Sequence record: PX055572.1
Strand: one strand, 5' to 3'
Source of the DNA: a phage
DNA length: 44,832 bases
Shown here in pieces: positions 5,624-38,912 of this stretch; the first letter of the stretch is position 1; each line of letters starts with the position of its first letter. Both the position numbers and the translations under genes were made by a program. The notes under the pieces are model-generated. The model saw only the letters and a list, made by a program, of their open reading frames with translations, did not search any database and had not been told where the DNA came from.

Positions 5624-5652
5624 AAAGCCCCGCTATGGGGCTTTATTTTTAT
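5624..5652 (+). terminator. Intrinsic terminator after Ig-like gene
   Basis: AAAGCCCC-gctat-GGGGCTTT then ATTTTTAT. Confidence 0.65.
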
Positions 5653-5716
5653 ATGAACATCGCGGTGATAGCCGCAGCCGATACCCACAAAACAAAATAA
5701 AACATCACACTATTTG

Positions 5717-6061
5717 TCATTTGCATTTCTCGTCGTATGTTTGTTGTAACTGCGACAGACGATTACCGGCTGTCATCTCGTCCATAGAAGGCCCAGCGCC
5801 TGTGTCCATAAAGAACAGCGGAACAATCAGGAATGCGCCTGTAACACCGAGTACAACGTTAGTACCTATTTGCTTATTAACACGGTGCGTAGCGTTGGCT
5901 TGAGCTTGTTTTGTCGTGGCGATTCTCGATAGTAACTGATTACATGTTGCCGTTGTATCCCCCGCCTGATAAACCTGTAAAGCTGGGTCTGGCAACGACC
6001 TTACGCAACCACTCAAACAAACGGCTACAACACCCGCTACTGCTAATTTAATATATTTCAT
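5717..6061 (-). CDS. Lipoprotein (candidate superinfection-exclusion / receptor-blocking)
   Basis: Signal peptide MKYIKLAVAGVVAVCLSGC with lipobox LSGC; reverse-strand insert in structural module; translationally coupled to upstream small peptide. Confidence 0.55.
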   Translation of the reverse strand: MKYIKLAVAGVVAVCLSGCVRSLPDPALQVYQAGDTTATCNQLLSRIATTKQAQANATHRVNKQIGTNVVLGVTGAFLIVPLFFMDTGAGPSMDEMTAGNRLSQLQQTYDEKCK

Positions 6062-6159
6062 AGTTCACCATTACCCGTGTCAATTTCACCAATACCACTA
6101 CAAGCCCAAAGAAACATCACCGCATCAACTGCAATTACTACTGAAATAACGACTAACAT
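6058..6159 (-). CDS. Small hydrophobic peptide (33 aa)
   Basis: MLVVISVVIAVDAVMFLWACSGIGEIDTGNGEL; strong SD GAGGAGG 6 nt upstream; stop overlaps lipoprotein start (ATGA); downstream of promoter G. Confidence 0.35.
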   Translation of the reverse strand: MLVVISVVIAVDAVMFLWACSGIGEIDTGNGEL

Positions 6160-6186
6160 GACGGCCTCCTCGTTTCGATGTAATGA

Positions 6187-6215
6187 ATAGTACCCTATTA
6201 TATTGGTGTGTGCAA
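6187..6215 (-). promoter_or_regulatory. Promoter G: TTGCAC-N17-TACTAT with AATAG-N4-CTATT palindrome
   Basis: As transcribed: TTGCAC ACACCAATATAATAGGG TACTAT; ~28 nt upstream of small peptide/lipoprotein operon. Confidence 0.55.
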
Positions 6216-6488
6216 ACTATTTATTTACGTATTCCAGTTATTCCACCGAATTGTAAATGTTGGAATAAACTATTCGAATAGTTGACTTTTCACTGAAAAT
6301 ATGCTAAGCTCCACCTGAGCTTGTGAAGTATGAACAAGCGACCGCGGCGCGGGCAGGTAACGGAGCGGGACGTAAGTCCTGAGTGTAGTTACGCTGACGC
6401 GTTCGGAAGGGCCATACTCTATTGCTTGTGTAAAAAGTAACTGGTTTACTGAGATTACGCCGTTTCTATGTTTAAATGATAAGGACTA

Positions 6489-6520
6489 GCGCCCCGCTTT
6501 ATGGCGGGGCTTTACTTATC
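6489..6520 (+). terminator. Hairpin terminator/attenuator immediately upstream of Rz
   Basis: GCCCCGC-tttatg-GCGGGGC followed by TTTACTTAT; ends 16 nt before Rz ATG. Confidence 0.45.
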
Positions 6521-6535
6521 GAGAAAGGGGGAAAC

Positions 6536-6922
6536 ATGAATCTTAAAGCAACCGTCGTAGCAGGAGCATGTTTCATCATCCTGGCTTACACACACGGCAT
6601 TTATCAGTACCGCAGCGGCTGGAGCGAAGGCCGGGCGAATCTCGTTTCGCAGCAACAGCAGAAAGTACAGGCTGAGTTAGCGAAGAAAACACAACGGCAG
6701 CAGCAGGACGAATCAAAGGCCGCCGCCGCTGACAACGAAGGCAAGACGAAATCAGAGGTGATTACCCGTGAAGTCGTTAAGTACATTAAAACGCCTGGTC
6801 GCAGCGTGTGCACTTTCGACGATGCTCGCGTCCTGCTCAAGTCCCACGCCGTCGCAAACGCTAATTCCATTACCGGATACGACGATGATGCAGCCTCCGT
6901 GCAAACTGGCAGCTCCAAGTAG
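6536..6922 (+). CDS. Rz: i-spanin (Rz-like)
   Basis: N-terminal TM helix ATVVAGACFIILAYTHGIY followed by Q/K/E-rich coiled-coil; SD aagggggaa; contains out-of-frame lipoprotein ORF (Rz1) at its 3' end. Confidence 0.6.
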   Translation: MNLKATVVAGACFIILAYTHGIYQYRSGWSEGRANLVSQQQQKVQAELAKKTQRQQQDESKAAAADNEGKTKSEVITREVVKYIKTPGRSVCTFDDARVLLKSHAVANANSITGYDDDAASVQTGSSK

Positions 6923-7031
6923 CGACGCTGACGAGGATTTAGCTATCGACGTTCAGAACGCCGAATGCGTGCGGCAACTGCGTCTGAAAGTATTCCAGTT
7001 GCAGGATTATGTGAGGAATATTCTGGAATAG
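6768..7031 (+). CDS. Rz1: o-spanin (Rz1-like outer-membrane lipoprotein), GTG start
   Basis: GTG start with SD AGAGG 7 nt upstream; signal peptide with lipobox LASC; Pro-rich mature N-terminus CSSPTPSQTLIPLP; overlaps 3' end of Rz in a different frame and extends 109 nt beyond. Confidence 0.6.
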   Translation: MKSLSTLKRLVAACALSTMLASCSSPTPSQTLIPLPDTTMMQPPCKLAAPSSDADEDLAIDVQNAECVRQLRLKVFQLQDYVRNILE

Positions 7032-7113
7032 TTGCCTTGCATGTTGGAATAATTTATTCTTGACATGTAAATCCGGGTGGCCCGGGTTCCAACGTCCAGG
7101 GGACATACTGACT

Positions 7114-7815
7114 ATGAATCGTTTTTTACGTTATCCGTTCCAGGAAGAAGCTGGGGCAGAAGATAAAGCTGGTGGCGGTGACGCGCCGAAAATGTTCACC
7201 GCTGAAGAAGTTCAGGCGCTGATTGAGAAAGAAGTTGCCGGGCTTAAGGCTAATCAGGAAGCATTGTTGGCGGAGAAGAAAGAAGCCGCTCGCAAAGCAA
7301 AAGAGGCCGAAGAAGAACGGCAGCGCGCGCACCAGGAGGCGTTAAAAGCCGCTGGTAAGATGGATGAGTTCGAAAAGACGATTCGTAGCCAGTATGACCC
7401 GGTGTTAGCCGAGAAAGACGGTCGCATCTCCAGAATGGCAGAGCGTATCCTCGGCAGCGAACGTAAAGCGGTGCTAGGCTCTTTCGCGGGTGACTTTATT
7501 ACCCCAGAAGCAGTGGACATTCTTGCGCCGTTCGTTAAGACTGAGTTCGAAGGCGATGATGTGGTTACTAAGTTTGTTGGTGCAGACGGTAACGTAATCA
7601 CGACTGACCCGGAACAGTTCCGCAAATACCTGCGCGAACACAAGGCGTTTTCGCATTTGATCAAAGCAAATGCAGCTTCCGGCGGCGGGGCTTCCGGTAG
7701 CAAAGGCGGCGGGGCCGCACCAGCGTTTAAAGACATGAGTGAAGCAGAGCGTTTAGCCCTGTATAAATCGAACCCTGCCGAATTTGAACGGCAACTTAAA
7801 GCCCTGAGGAAATAA
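7114..7815 (+). CDS. Scaffolding protein
   Basis: Ala/Glu/Lys-rich helical protein (EKKEAARKAKEAEEERQRAHQEALKAAG) immediately upstream of major capsid gene; first ATG in ORF. Confidence 0.6.
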   Translation: MNRFLRYPFQEEAGAEDKAGGGDAPKMFTAEEVQALIEKEVAGLKANQEALLAEKKEAARKAKEAEEERQRAHQEALKAAGKMDEFEKTIRSQYDPVLAEKDGRISRMAERILGSERKAVLGSFAGDFITPEAVDILAPFVKTEFEGDDVVTKFVGADGNVITTDPEQFRKYLREHKAFSHLIKANAASGGGASGSKGGGAAPAFKDMSEAERLALYKSNPAEFERQLKALRK

Positions 7816-8882: not shown

Positions 8883-8910
8883 GAGAGGGACTTCGGTCCC
8901 TCTTTTCATT
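8883..8910 (+). terminator. Intrinsic terminator/attenuator after major capsid gene
   Basis: GAGGGAC-ttcg-GTCCCTC then TTTTCATTT. Confidence 0.6.
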
Positions 8911-9305: not shown

Positions 9306-9486
9306 CATGGCAGATAATTATGTAATCCGCGAAAAGTACACCCACGTTGATGTTGTTGACGGTCAGGTGATGCCTGTTCGCGGTGCGGTAGAAGCGGAAG
9401 AACTGGTTGCAACACAACCGGACAACGAAGAAGCGCACAACAACGGTGGTGGTACTAAGCGACGTCGCCGTAAGTCAGAGGAATAA
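9306..9486 (+). pseudogene. Small ORF interrupted by apparent +1 frame break at a G-run (9358-9362)
   Basis: ATG 9306 with SD AAGGAAAGG gives MADNYVIREKYTHVDVVDG then continues in frame only 1 nt downstream (...VMPVRGAVEAEELVATQPDNEEAHNNGGGTKRRRRKSEE, stop 9484-9486). Confidence 0.25.
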
Positions 9487-9489
9487 TTT

Positions 9490-10002
9490 ATGCCGCTAAT
9501 CGTGGAAACTGGGGAAATCGTCCCGAATGCCGACAGTTACATTAGTCTGGCTGACGCCCGCGCGTTAGCGGCTAATTATGGTCTGGAGTTGCCCGCGGAT
9601 GATACCGCCGCAGAGGTGGCCTTGCGCAACGGTGCTACTTATGTCGGGCTTGCAGAACCGCAGATGTGCGGGCGTCGCGTATCCGCTGAACAGTCTCTTG
9701 CGTATCCACGCACGGGTGTAACGTTGAATGGTTTCCCAGTAGCTAACAATGCCATTCCGAAACAGGTAATTCTCGCGCAGGTAATCGCCGCTGTTACGTA
9801 TGGAGCTGGCACTGATGTTCGGGCTAACTCCGATGGACGTTCCGTGCAGACCGAGCGTGTAGAGGGTGCGGTAACAGTTACCTACTTCAACAACGGCAAC
9901 AGCGGAGCCACAACCGCGATTACCGCCGCTGACGACGCCTTACGCCCGTTACTGTGTGGTGGTCTTAACAACGGCTTCTCATTTAATGTGTACCGGGGTT
10001 AA
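9490..10002 (+). CDS. Head-tail connector / structural protein
   Basis: 170-aa ORF in neck region between capsid and tail genes; position only. Confidence 0.4.
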   Translation: MPLIVETGEIVPNADSYISLADARALAANYGLELPADDTAAEVALRNGATYVGLAEPQMCGRRVSAEQSLAYPRTGVTLNGFPVANNAIPKQVILAQVIAAVTYGAGTDVRANSDGRSVQTERVEGAVTVTYFNNGNSGATTAITAADDALRPLLCGGLNNGFSFNVYRG

Positions 10003-12954: not shown

Positions 12955-12982
12955 CTAAGGCCCCTTTCGGGGCCTTTTTCTT
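12955..12982. terminator. Bidirectional terminator between major tail gene and reverse cassette
   Basis: AGGCCCC-tttc-GGGGCCT then TTTTCTT; A-rich on the other side. Confidence 0.65.
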
Positions 12983-15451: not shown

Positions 15452-15558
15452 GTAGTGTGCTAGAATAATTTTGCGCCTAGTGTCGCACACGAAAAGCGGG
15501 TGGTTCCCGTCTGGCGCATTTCCTTTAACCAGTAACCTCTTAACCAAAGGATTAAAGA

Positions 15559-35309: not shown

Positions 35310-35525
35310 ATGCAACCATCTGAACTAGGCACCCGTGTAGAACAACGCCGTAAAGAACTCGGCATCTCCCAGCGCCGTTTGGCGGTCCTGACCGGCGTTT
35401 CCCAGGGCGCAATTAACCAGCTGGCTCTCGGTGTAACTCAGGACGTCCGCCCGGCAACGTTGTTTAAACTGGCGGAAGTGCTGGAAGTAGACGCTAAGTG
35501 GCTGGCGTTCGGTGAAGGGGCTTGA
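35310..35525 (+). CDS. HTH XRE-family transcriptional regulator (Cro-like)
   Basis: ISQRRLAVLTGVSQGAINQL helix-turn-helix; 71 aa; SD AAGGAG; divergent from replication operon; followed by terminator. Confidence 0.65.
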   Translation: MQPSELGTRVEQRRKELGISQRRLAVLTGVSQGAINQLALGVTQDVRPATLFKLAEVLEVDAKWLAFGEGA

Positions 35526-38075: not shown

Positions 38076-38309
38076 TTATTCCAGGTCTTCTACAGTAGCG
38101 GTCATTCCGCGAACTTCAGCAACTGCGCTATATTTCCCACCAACATTTTTCACGACACCATATTTAACCAGTACCTTCAACGACCCTTCAATAATGGCGG
38201 AACTATAGTACTTAAAATAACTACGGCGCAAGTCCATAACGCTGCACGACCCTTTTTTACGTGTTAATGAAACGACTGCCGTAAATACGCGTGACTGGAA
38301 CTCGGTCAT
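38076..38309 (-). CDS. Small protein, ends in EDLE
   Basis: 77 aa; C-terminus TVEDLE matches the EDLE tails of the exonuclease and primase-helicase. Confidence 0.4.
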   Translation of the reverse strand: MTEFQSRVFTAVVSLTRKKGSCSVMDLRRSYFKYYSSAIIEGSLKVLVKYGVVKNVGGKYSAVAEVRGMTATVEDLE

Positions 38310-38476
38310 TTTACATTCTCCTTAATCCACGCTTCCACTTTCTCCCGGTCAAACGTACCTGGCTGACGGCGGCCCATAATGCGGATACAACAATCCGGGA
38401 ACTTCCCACTCTTTAACCAGTTATTCAGCGTGCGACGGGTAACCCCGATACGCTCAGCTACCTCATTCTGTGTCAT
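38306..38476 (-). CDS. AlpA-like HTH DNA-binding regulator
   Basis: MTQNEVAERIGVTRRTLNNWLKSGKFP... resembles AlpA/excisionase-type HTH (from memory); first ATG downstream of - strand promoter TTGATT-N17-TATACT; ORF track starts at TTG 38503. Confidence 0.5.
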   Translation of the reverse strand: MTQNEVAERIGVTRRTLNNWLKSGKFPDCCIRIMGRRQPGTFDREKVEAWIKENVK

Positions 38477-38508
38477 CCTCAAGCCCCCATTATCAGTTAA
38501 CAAAATCG

Positions 38509-38537: not shown

Positions 38538-38712
38538 ACATAATCGCACCTATTGACATTATGAAAATCTTCGTTTAAGGTGCTTTTATATCTTAGTTAC
38601 TTTGATTCTTGTTCACCTTGTAATACCCGCTTGAAACGCAGCGGCGCACCAGCGCCAGCGAAGTGTTAAGCGGCAGATTACTGAACATATGAATTATCGT
38701 AACTTTCCTTCC

Positions 38713-38775
38713 TAAGTATCTCAGGTTGCCCTGGGCAAGCTCTATTCTCATCGACGGCATATCTCTTAAGTATCT
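38713..38775. repeat. Direct repeats TAAGTATCT (x2) in divergent intergenic region
   Basis: cctAAGTATCTcagg at 38713-38721 and cttAAGTATCTgata at 38767-38775. Confidence 0.3.
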
Positions 38776-38813
38776 GATAATTAAAAGTTTCTATAGTTGC
38801 CGTGAGCAATGTT

Positions 38814-38870
38814 GAGAGTACTTCACTCCGCTGGGGTGGGCTAAAGCCCACCCGCTGCGTTGCGTACTCT
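38814..38870 (+). other. Composite stem-loop in divergent intergenic region
   Basis: Outer stem AGAGTAC/GTACTCT enclosing GGGTGGGC-taaa-GCCCACCC; followed by TTTTAAG; no ORF. Confidence 0.35.
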
Positions 38871-38912
38871 TTTAAGAAACGAAAGAATCACAACGGCAAC
38901 GTAACTATTCTC

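Follow-up and report, generated by a model that had tools for sequence, protein, structure and literature searches.

The locus and its neighbouring genes

The window analysed here is the whole 44,832-nucleotide stretch of sequence record PX055572.1, which is the complete genome of a Kagunavirus (Guernseyvirinae) with E. coli as its host. Escherichia phage VB_EcoS-Golestan is nearly equal to it in length and about 95% identical over the 4 kb that were tested. The region under study, 6230-6520, is flanked by a reverse-strand two-gene cassette and by the Rz spanin gene, the ATG of which lies at 6538. The neighbouring features are as follows.

5624-5644: bidirectional terminator upstream of the cassette, closing the head-decoration gene
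5717-6061, minus strand: lipoprotein gene of the two-gene cassette
6058-6159, minus strand: gene for the 33-residue protein of the same cassette
6187-6215, minus strand: cassette promoter TTGCAC-17-TACTAT, one of seven copies of a genome-wide promoter motif
6538-7031, plus strand: Rz and the embedded Rz1 spanin genes, which have no promoter of their own after the hairpin that precedes them

In the paper on fBC-Eco01, the consensus tgAATAGTa-ccTATTat-T was reported (PMC9825357). The lipoprotein cassette is absent from many relatives, Sciku among them, and in these the conservation starts exactly at window position 6230. This position, the beginning of the half-site array described below, is the left edge of the conservation shared by all relatives. 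Other plus-strand terminators were located by a terminator scan after the capsid gene (8883-8904) and at 12957-12976.

Promoter and half-site array upstream of Rz

The DNA directly upstream of the part predicted to be transcribed holds the following elements.

6230-6281, no strand assigned: operator-like array, a cluster of GAATA/TATTC half-sites upstream of promoter P1
6257-6268, plus strand: first copy of the 12-mer ATGTTGGAATAA, its 3' part being the left half of the proximal palindrome
6270-6281: palindrome CTATTCGAATAG, just before TTGACT
6282-6310, plus strand: promoter P1, with TTGACT (6282-6287), a 17-base spacer, TG at 6302-6303 and TAAGCT (6305-6310)

Judged by its sequence, promoter P1 is a promoter of the host sigma-70 type with an extended -10. 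The hexamers and the TG are invariant in the 27 type-A sequences, all six variable positions falling in the spacer, and the same design recurs in other leader types (TAGACT-17-TGtTACGCT and TGGACT-17-TGaTAACCT). A simple promoter scan overlooks promoter P1, as TAAGCT fits the consensus at three of six positions, namely T1, A2 and T6; the PVP-SE2 record carries an in-silico promoter annotation at this place. From the promoter spacing, transcription would be expected to start near 6317.

The features that the earlier note had listed (12-mer, palindrome, TTGACT, GC-rich segment and hairpin) all exist, at coordinates shifted by one or two bases. The repetition of the 12-mer turned out to be unexceptional in itself: the window holds 181 same-strand exact 12-mer pairs, compared with about 63 in shuffled sequences, and 11 pairs lie no more than 1 kb apart (about 2.8 in shuffles). 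When two mismatches were allowed, this particular 12-mer occurred at three sites in the window against 2.96 expected, with no excess over chance. The first copy is mostly kept in relatives, with one or two variant sequences at each of five positions. Transcripts from promoter P1 would not include the 12-mer, because this lies 14-25 bases ahead of the -35 hexamer, and the idea of a noncoding RNA that begins at the 12-mer is thereby contradicted.

A different result was obtained for the GAATA/TATTC 5-mers. They cluster at two places only in the window, 6230-6281 (five copies) and 6991-7060 (six copies), whereas in 200 shuffles there were never more than four copies per 70 bases. Both copies of the 12-mer fall within these two clusters. 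Hence, the suspected late-regulator site would stand insofar as the 12-mer belongs to an operator-like half-site array, though not in the form of the exact 12-mer, which by itself is not above chance. The array upstream of promoter P1 contains two direct TTATTCC repeats about 78 and 87 bases upstream of the predicted start (TATTC at 6230 and 6239, nine bases apart), and an inverted half-site pair, GGAATAaacTATTC, at 6262-6275 with its center about 49 bases upstream of that start. The 12-mer forms the left half of the palindrome GGAATAnnnTATTC within the array, and GAATAG (6276-6281) abuts the -35 hexamer. The layout of the half-sites relative to the -35 is the same, position for position, in the otherwise diverged leader types A, J and E. 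The paralogous copies in the early region of related phages (see below) are headed by the same core promoter but have no half-sites, and the array is therefore a distinguishing mark of the late copy.

In its arrangement, the array 6230-6281 looks like an operator. Short half-sites in direct and inverted arrangement are also a feature of the operators, overlapping or flanking phage promoters, that phi29 p4 and lambda CI use. The palindrome GAAT-N5-ATTC resembles the core of the ArgR ARG box, GAAT-N4-ATTC, and is one base longer. A third copy of the palindrome, at 9480, was set aside; it lies on a junction of stop codon, ribosome-binding site and start codon, which explains its conservation.

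The second array and a putative internal promoter

The second cluster of half-sites lies ahead of the scaffold gene, with these features.

6991-7060, no strand assigned: second half-site cluster (six copies), conserved in Kagunavirus and Jerseyvirus
7032-7060, plus strand: putative internal promoter P2, with TTGCCT (7032-7037), 17 bases and TATTCT (7055-7060)
7041-7052: second copy of the 12-mer ATGTTGGAATAA, inside the second cluster
7046-7059: palindrome GGAATAAtTTATTC, overlapping the spacer and -10 of promoter P2
7073-7085, plus strand: hairpin CCGGG-tgg-CCCGG, between promoter P2 and the ribosome-binding site of the scaffold gene

Neither hexamer of promoter P2 changes across 24 sequence variants or in Jersey; the part of the spacer at 7039-7044 varies. 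With eight of twelve consensus positions promoter P2 falls under the scan threshold, and it may be a weaker promoter, internal and overlapped by an operator, that serves the scaffold and capsid genes. The TTGACA that had been pointed out at this second site is present (7060-7065), but it is not conserved, being TTGTTA in Jerseyvirus jersey, and is probably irrelevant. The hairpin at 7073-7085 is maintained in Jersey by changed bases (CACCG...CGGUG).

The half-sites lie upstream of promoter P1 (center about -49) but over the spacer and -10 of promoter P2. Because of this difference in placement, one protein could act oppositely or co-ordinately at the two promoters. Most likely, one DNA-binding regulator would use both arrays to co-ordinate them. 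That the same regulator also serves the seven AATAG-N4-CTATT promoters besides the GGAATA-N3-TATTC sites is speculative, the half-site spacing differing by three bases. When 20 small early ORFs were searched with PHROGs and Pfam, only two HTH proteins were recognisable as DNA-binding:

35310-35525: Cro/CI-type HTH protein, an early ORF
38306-38503: excisionase-like HTH protein, an early ORF

No member of the Q, N or AlpA families was found among the same 20 ORFs, a set that is not exhaustive.

A conserved structured RNA downstream of promoter P1

The part of the region predicted to be transcribed, on the plus strand, is composed of the following elements.

6311-6429, plus strand: structured RNA core, scoring 150.6 bits with covariance model R1
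6319-6324 with 6334-6339, plus strand: hairpin P1 of the RNA
6342-6406, plus strand: long interrupted helix P2 of the RNA
6367-6380, plus strand: apical hairpin P3 of the RNA, with a GUAA loop
6402-6413, plus strand: conserved unpaired purine-rich stretch UUCGGAAGGGCC
6417-6424, plus strand: CUCUAUUG, following the unpaired stretch
6430-6488, plus strand: 3' part of the RNA, with a diversity of 0.021 and less conserved than the core
6491-6519, plus strand: terminator-like hairpin GCCCCGC-tttat-GCGGGGC followed by TTTACTTAT, found by the scan and ending 18 bases before the Rz start codon

Homologues were gathered from IMG/VR and GenBank, and model R1 was built on leader types A and B; it finds a single copy in the window. 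The core has 57% G+C, and the GC-rich segment that had been placed at 6340-6380 was confirmed, with 63-65% G+C measured across 6310-6399. The nucleotide diversity of the core is 0.009, about 12 times below that of the adjacent Rz gene (0.114), and that of the next intergenic region is 0.117. The 110-base core hardly varies in sequence within any one leader type. Salmonella phage ER13 shares 95% identity with the window over the element, against 83% over the flanking genes. Recent spread of the cassette by recombination could be part of the cause of the low core diversity, besides constraint.

Compensatory changes, together with frame-breaking indels, were first met in the diverged copy of Ec1-ASingh. 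For the covariation test, 27 distinct sequences were realigned to model R1, and it was found that 96.7% of the cells had standard pairing and that 18 of the 30 pairs had changes on both sides, values that none of 500 shuffles reached. In slid controls, where the partners were moved by 1-3 columns, pairing fell to 27-45%. The alignment was fitted to model R1 and so favors the structure; the covarying pairs were visible already in the first MAFFT alignment. When RNAalifold was left to derive its own structure from the realigned sequences, it recovered the three helices with 13 compensatory pairs. The many G-U pairs establish that the RNA lies on the plus strand. On this comparative evidence, 6311-6429 is a conserved structured non-coding RNA.

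The unpaired stretch UUCGGAAGGGCC is nearly constant over types A, B and J; variants are UUUGGGAGGCCC in Shashou and in the early copy of Golestan, and UCCGGAAGGCCA in one further homologue (L088). A loop pairing of AGUAUG (6327-6332) with CAUACU (6413-6418), suggested by alifold, was rejected, since its changes are mixed and it is missing in types B1 and J. A likeness of CUCUAUUG to boxA was also discarded; CUCU is all they have in common, and it is not kept across types.

Rfam 15 gave no family match over 6100-7150 at gathering and permissive thresholds (best E = 1.9), nor did Rfam match leader types J1, J2, D, E or B. ARAGORN detected no tRNA or tmRNA, either in the window or at 15 related loci. 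Several GenBank records annotate a tRNA-Ser; it covers the upstream terminator on the minus strand and has no relation to the RNA core. No description of the core was found in the literature and databases, and by these comparisons it is a family not yet described, of the phage promoter-proximal leader or small RNA kind.

Coding potential of the region

The sole sizeable ORF in the region has 36 codons (6330-6440) and is annotated as a hypothetical protein in several GenBank records (Sciku, SHAK7858 and PVP-SE2). A C-terminal reading, FGRA..YC, is kept in several leader types, which would suit a small protein. In Golestan, however, the insertion of a single base shifts the frame, as do indels in another three type-A genomes (L021, L053 and L061). 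Type B lacks a start codon, and its frame is open for only 17 codons. The nucleotides are conserved nonetheless. With the frame broken or the start codon missing in many homologues, no convincing ribosome-binding site, and variation that tracks base pairing and not codons, it is extremely improbable that a small protein is made from this ORF. The earlier statement that 6230-6520 holds no credible ORF is therefore upheld. A mini-ORF from the conserved UUG of CUAUUG behind the SD-like GGAAGG was also considered; it is a weak candidate and was rejected, because UAUUG is deleted in one homologue (L088) and altered in another (L067).

The 3' part and the hairpin before Rz

The 3' part of the RNA is homologous in types A and J, A and J1 being 68% identical over 147 bases, and it contains ACUGAnAnU and GUUUCUAU, both of which are common to the early-region copies. 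It is followed by the terminal hairpin, which had been placed at 6489-6520 and was found at 6491-6510, after which comes TTTACTTAT. The stem has eight pairs, seven of them G-C, with a U-tract directly after it, as is expected of an intrinsic terminator, and it is similar in quality to the terminators at 5624-5644, 8883-8904 and 12957-12976. It covaries at 6495/6506 (C-G to U-A or A-U), and its T-tract is invariant. The type-A RNA tail is UUUACUUAU, which differs from the long uninterrupted U tail of Hfq-type small RNAs. The corresponding hairpin of types J, D and E lacks a U-tract.

The gap between the hairpin and Rz holds a ribosome-binding site alone. As there is no promoter after the hairpin and transcription from upstream is blocked, Rz and Rz1 would depend on read-through. 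Since they need the terminator to be read through, the RNA of the window would be a small RNA where it is terminated and, on read-through, the 5' leader of the message for Rz and Rz1. In the Jersey and SE1 types, where the hairpin has no U-tract, the RNA would be the 5' leader of the Rz message and not a discrete small RNA. The small RNA that the earlier note had suspected is borne out in part, by a conserved, structured plus-strand RNA with its predicted end at the hairpin near 6510-6519; in the Jersey and SE1 types that hairpin is not followed by a U-tract. Overall, the initial guess of a 'small RNA or late-regulatory site' is partly supported, both halves being right in direction and different in the details.

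Distribution and leader types

Among about 484 Guernseyvirinae records, about 450 have one or another version of the leader in the slot upstream of Rz. Type A is present in 181 GenBank records, which comprise Kagunavirus and a subset of Salmonella phages. Type J1 is present in 269 records and has a rare deletion variant, J2, in Jerseyvirus jersey without helices P2 and P3; given this natural variant, these helices are not essential. Types E and D are known from a few genomes. In the 181 and 269 records, the element is always directly upstream of Rz and in the same orientation. Model R1 matches type J1 at an E value of about 1e-11 and type E at 0.03. The leaders are mosaic: the operator region is common to A, J and E and the 3' part to A and J, while a different 3' part is common to D and E. 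Helices P2 and P3 span about two helical turns in types A, B and J but about 10-11 base pairs in types D and E.

In the nearest outgroup, Pseudomonas phage PMBT14, there is no leader, and the scaffold gene directly adjoins the morphogenesis gene. When 185,579 species genomes were scanned with a sequence pattern, there were 10 matches, as many as chance would roughly yield, and no chromosomal copy; the sole real match was on a 738-base scaffold that is most likely phage contamination.

At least 41 Kagunaviruses, including Golestan, have a paralogous core, of type B or B', in their divergent early control region. It lies downstream of the same promoter; after it come first a terminator-like hairpin and next the separate promoter of the early genes. 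The window has no early-region copy of the core that is detectable by model R1. At 38553-38900 it has a similar promoter (TTGACA-17-TAAGGT), where an unrelated 5' sequence is joined to the shared 3' part.

Comparison with known systems

The closest parallels are phage RNAs and control modules located just downstream of promoters. The putL and putR RNAs of HK022 mediate protein-independent processive antitermination (PMC9378689). As with these, a folded stem-loop RNA lies here directly downstream of a sigma-70 promoter; in relatives there is a second, paralogous copy, and the two head separate long operons that have terminators downstream (the window has one copy); and no partner antiterminator protein was recognised for the Guernseyvirinae RNA. 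The core is, in contrast, about 100-120 bases long and not about 70, and its second stem is missing in a viable natural variant. In a one-way test of model R1 against the HK022 immunity region with filters off, the best E value was 4.3. The put RNAs render RNA polymerase resistant to terminators in cis and without proteins, through contact with the beta' zinc-binding domain. Because no similarity to HK022 put and no Q-like gene was found, the likeness to the put and Q systems is one of analogy only.

The lambda PR'-6S RNA-tR' module shares with this locus a promoter, a transcript of about 200 bases, an intrinsic terminator before late genes and DNA sites clustered at the promoter. The differences are that no Q-like gene was found here, that most relatives lack the terminator, and that the DNA sites lie upstream of the -35 and not between the -35 and -10. 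The lambda 6S RNA is not known to be a conserved structured RNA.

An int-alpA RNA motif (Rfam RF02996), which is phage-associated, was detected in the window itself at 15470-15534. Like the RNA core, it is a short structured RNA that immediately follows an extended -10 promoter, here the one heading the tail genes, which form the next rightward operon. Its structure and sequence are different, and the core matches no Rfam model.

Proposed mechanism and alternative explanations

Our preferred reading, which we hold tentatively and at a little short of an even chance, is that the region is the control head of the transcription unit beginning with Rz and that the folded nascent RNA acts in cis. 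Host sigma-70 RNA polymerase would start at the extended -10 promoter 6282-6310, while a regulator bound to the GAATA arrays 6230-6281 and 6991-7060 would co-ordinate promoters P1 and P2. The first 200 or so transcribed bases would fold into a 5' hairpin and a long helix, about 25 base pairs in length and topped by an apical hairpin, followed by an unpaired purine-rich stretch. Part of the RNA would stop at a moderate, leaky intrinsic terminator directly before the Rz ribosome-binding site, and polymerase would have to read through this leader terminator to reach Rz-Rz1. The folded RNA may set the passage of polymerase at the leader and later terminators, by attenuation or by put-like antitermination, and the terminated product would be a by-product or have a second role. 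In favor of such cis action are the fixed position and orientation upstream of Rz, the fold that starts a few bases from the predicted 5' end, the plus-strand terminators further downstream, the absence of the leader terminator from most relatives and the paralogue that heads the early rightward genes, which form another long operon. On the other side, the promoter, RNA of 200-260 bases and terminator of types A and B have the look of a stand-alone small-RNA gene, and the early-region copy is separated from the early genes by their own promoter. A bolder version, that the RNA is a second put-like class, structurally unrelated to the first, for protein-independent processive antitermination in the virulent Guernseyvirinae siphophages, is doubtful. 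If it were so, the host polymerase would be carried through the terminators of the long rightward operons, and cassettes A, B, J, E and D would be tuned to enterobacterial polymerase.

The alternatives differ in what they make of the RNA and of the terminator. It is possible, if rather unlikely, that the region is a stand-alone gene for a small RNA that acts in trans, made abundantly from promoter P1, about 200 bases long and with its end at 6510-6519, with read-through into Rz incidental and a host or phage target contacted through, for example, the unpaired stretch UUCGGAAGGGCC. The pairing, in types A and B, of a near-consensus promoter with a conserved RNA and a terminator-like hairpin whose T-tract is invariant agrees with this, as does the early-region copy, a separate unit before the early genes' own promoter. 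The 12-base unpaired motif is kept over types A, B and J in the manner of small-RNA seed regions, and the cassette has been swapped between E. coli and Salmonella phages without its flanks. Against a role in trans, a U-tract is missing from types J, D and E, to which most of the subfamily belongs, and the type-A tail UUUACUU fits Hfq-type small RNAs poorly; the motif itself is not invariant (UUUGGGAGGCCC and UCCGGAAGGCCA), and the constant placement and orientation of the element upstream of Rz argue in the same direction.

If the locus were instead a module of the lambda PR' type, the promoter would be constitutive and the terminator would stop most transcripts; a phage protein loading at promoter-proximal DNA sites would render polymerase terminator-resistant, and the RNA would be a by-product, as lambda 6S RNA is. 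The layout (promoter, about 200 bases, terminator, late genes) agrees, DNA sites are clustered at the promoter, and AAGTAT (6326-6331), at about +10 to +15, fits the -10-like pattern NANNAT in type A. Type B has no equivalent of this element, however, the leader terminator is missing in types J, D and E, and the 20 small early ORFs, although not an exhaustive set, contain no Q-, N- or AlpA-like protein. Above all, a by-product RNA would not show compensatory changes or 12-times-lower diversity, and this explanation appears improbable. We attach similarly little weight to a message-stabilising or processing leader, where the 5'-terminal hairpin and the one ahead of the ribosome-binding site would shield the late message, or RNase III would act on the long helix. 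In types A, J and E, hairpin P1 does start 2-8 bases from the predicted 5' end, all types have a G+C-rich hairpin ahead of the ribosome-binding sites of both Rz and the scaffold gene, and helices P2 and P3 together reach about two helical turns in types A, B and J. A stabilising role needs structure only, yet the 110-base core is almost invariant in sequence per type; the P2/P3 helices of types D and E, with their 10-11 base pairs, are short for it, and the early-region copy has no adjacent ORF to protect.

Significance for Guernseyvirinae biology

Few phages are isolated and sequenced as often as Kagunaviruses and Jerseyviruses, which are of interest in therapy and food safety where E. coli and Salmonella are concerned. 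The locus described here provides a handle on how they schedule late gene expression without an RNA polymerase of their own, in the form of a conserved promoter, two operator-like arrays and an unannotated structured RNA in about 450 genomes. Whichever way the RNA acts, the annotation of the 36-codon ORF needs correction and the family could join the RNA databases. Should the RNA control elongation, it would be a new instance of an RNA that regulates RNA polymerase; should it act in trans, it would be a small RNA widespread among lytic phages.

Doubtful database records

Several GenBank records annotate a tRNA-Ser beside the leader, as in Salmonella phage templet:

MT074462.1 9732-9809 (229-306 of locus L102), minus strand: annotated tRNA-Ser (GenBank annotation)

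The annotated gene lies on the strand opposite the leader and overlaps the end of the head-decoration gene together with its terminator. Since ARAGORN found no tRNA in 15 related loci, the annotation is probably a false call. Two further records call for caution. A Jersey-type leader scoring 49.3 bits with R1, the covariance model built from leader types A and B, was found on a 738-base scaffold of Taishania pollutisoli (NZ_JACVEL010000048.1, locus L101), which most likely represents Salmonella-phage contamination of that assembly. The taxonomy line of Escherichia phage vB_EcoM_SHAK7858 (OR594183.1, locus L003) reads Autographiviridae; Kayfunavirus. Its matched region is 93.6% identical to the Kagunavirus of the window and has the same gene order; hence, judged by sequence, the record seems to be misclassified.

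Promoters and gene cassettes of the window

A small cassette separates the upstream terminator from the operator array:

5649-6215, minus strand: two-gene cassette with its own promoter (sequence)

Its genes encode a lipoprotein, whose lipobox is LSGC, and a hydrophobic protein of 33 residues. The cassette looks like a moron, as many relatives (Sciku, LSPA1, SHAK7858) either lack it or have other sequence in its place. Seven copies of a conserved promoter (TTGCAC or TTGACA, 17 bases, TACTAT or TATAGT) occur in the window:

6186, 15422, 28805, 32493 and 35222, minus strand: repeated promoter copies (sequence)
38929 and 40056, plus strand: repeated promoter copies (sequence)

These promoters are host-type and agree with the "phage promoter" consensus of fBC-Eco01 (PMC9825357). 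In all seven, the palindrome AATAG-N4-CTATT spans the spacer and the -10 element, possibly as a common operator.

Two features belong to the head genes:

8883-8904, plus strand: strong terminator-like hairpin (sequence)
9480-9494, plus strand: GGAATAATTTATGCC, identical to the second-site palindrome at 12 of 12 bases

The hairpin is located within the late operon, immediately 3' of the major capsid gene, and transcription of the head and tail genes beyond it depends on read-through. The 9480-9494 sequence is kept in 23 related loci because it forms the stop, ribosome-binding-site and start junction joining two head genes.

Leader variation and other known or possible RNAs

In Jerseyvirus jersey UPWr_S1 (locus L044, 1760-1818), a natural deletion with endpoints at two CCGCG repeats has removed the entire P2/P3 domain of the leader, and this phage is apparently viable. 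The variant appears rare: among the 269 Jersey-type records, 268 span 80% or more of the query leader.

Two more regions of the window are relevant here:

38553-38900, plus strand: early divergent control region, promoter and ORF-poor stretch (sequence)
15458-15534, plus strand: int-alpA RNA and its promoter (Rfam match, sequence)

The early region contains the promoter TTGACA-17-TAAGGT and about 300 bases in which no ORF is credible; a long hairpin and then UCUUUU close the stretch. At its 3' end, positions 38768-38902 share 95.6% identity with the sequence that follows the type-B RNA copy, the early-region paralogue of the leader carried by other Kagunaviruses. Because the 5' part is unrelated, the stretch may hold a different RNA in the type-B slot. 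The int-alpA RNA (RF02996) is the sole Rfam match in the window, with a score of 36.6 bits (threshold 35.8). An extended -10 promoter (TGcTAGAAT, 15458-15466) immediately precedes it, and the tail assembly chaperone gene is situated just downstream; thus, the next rightward operon is also headed by a promoter-proximal structured RNA.
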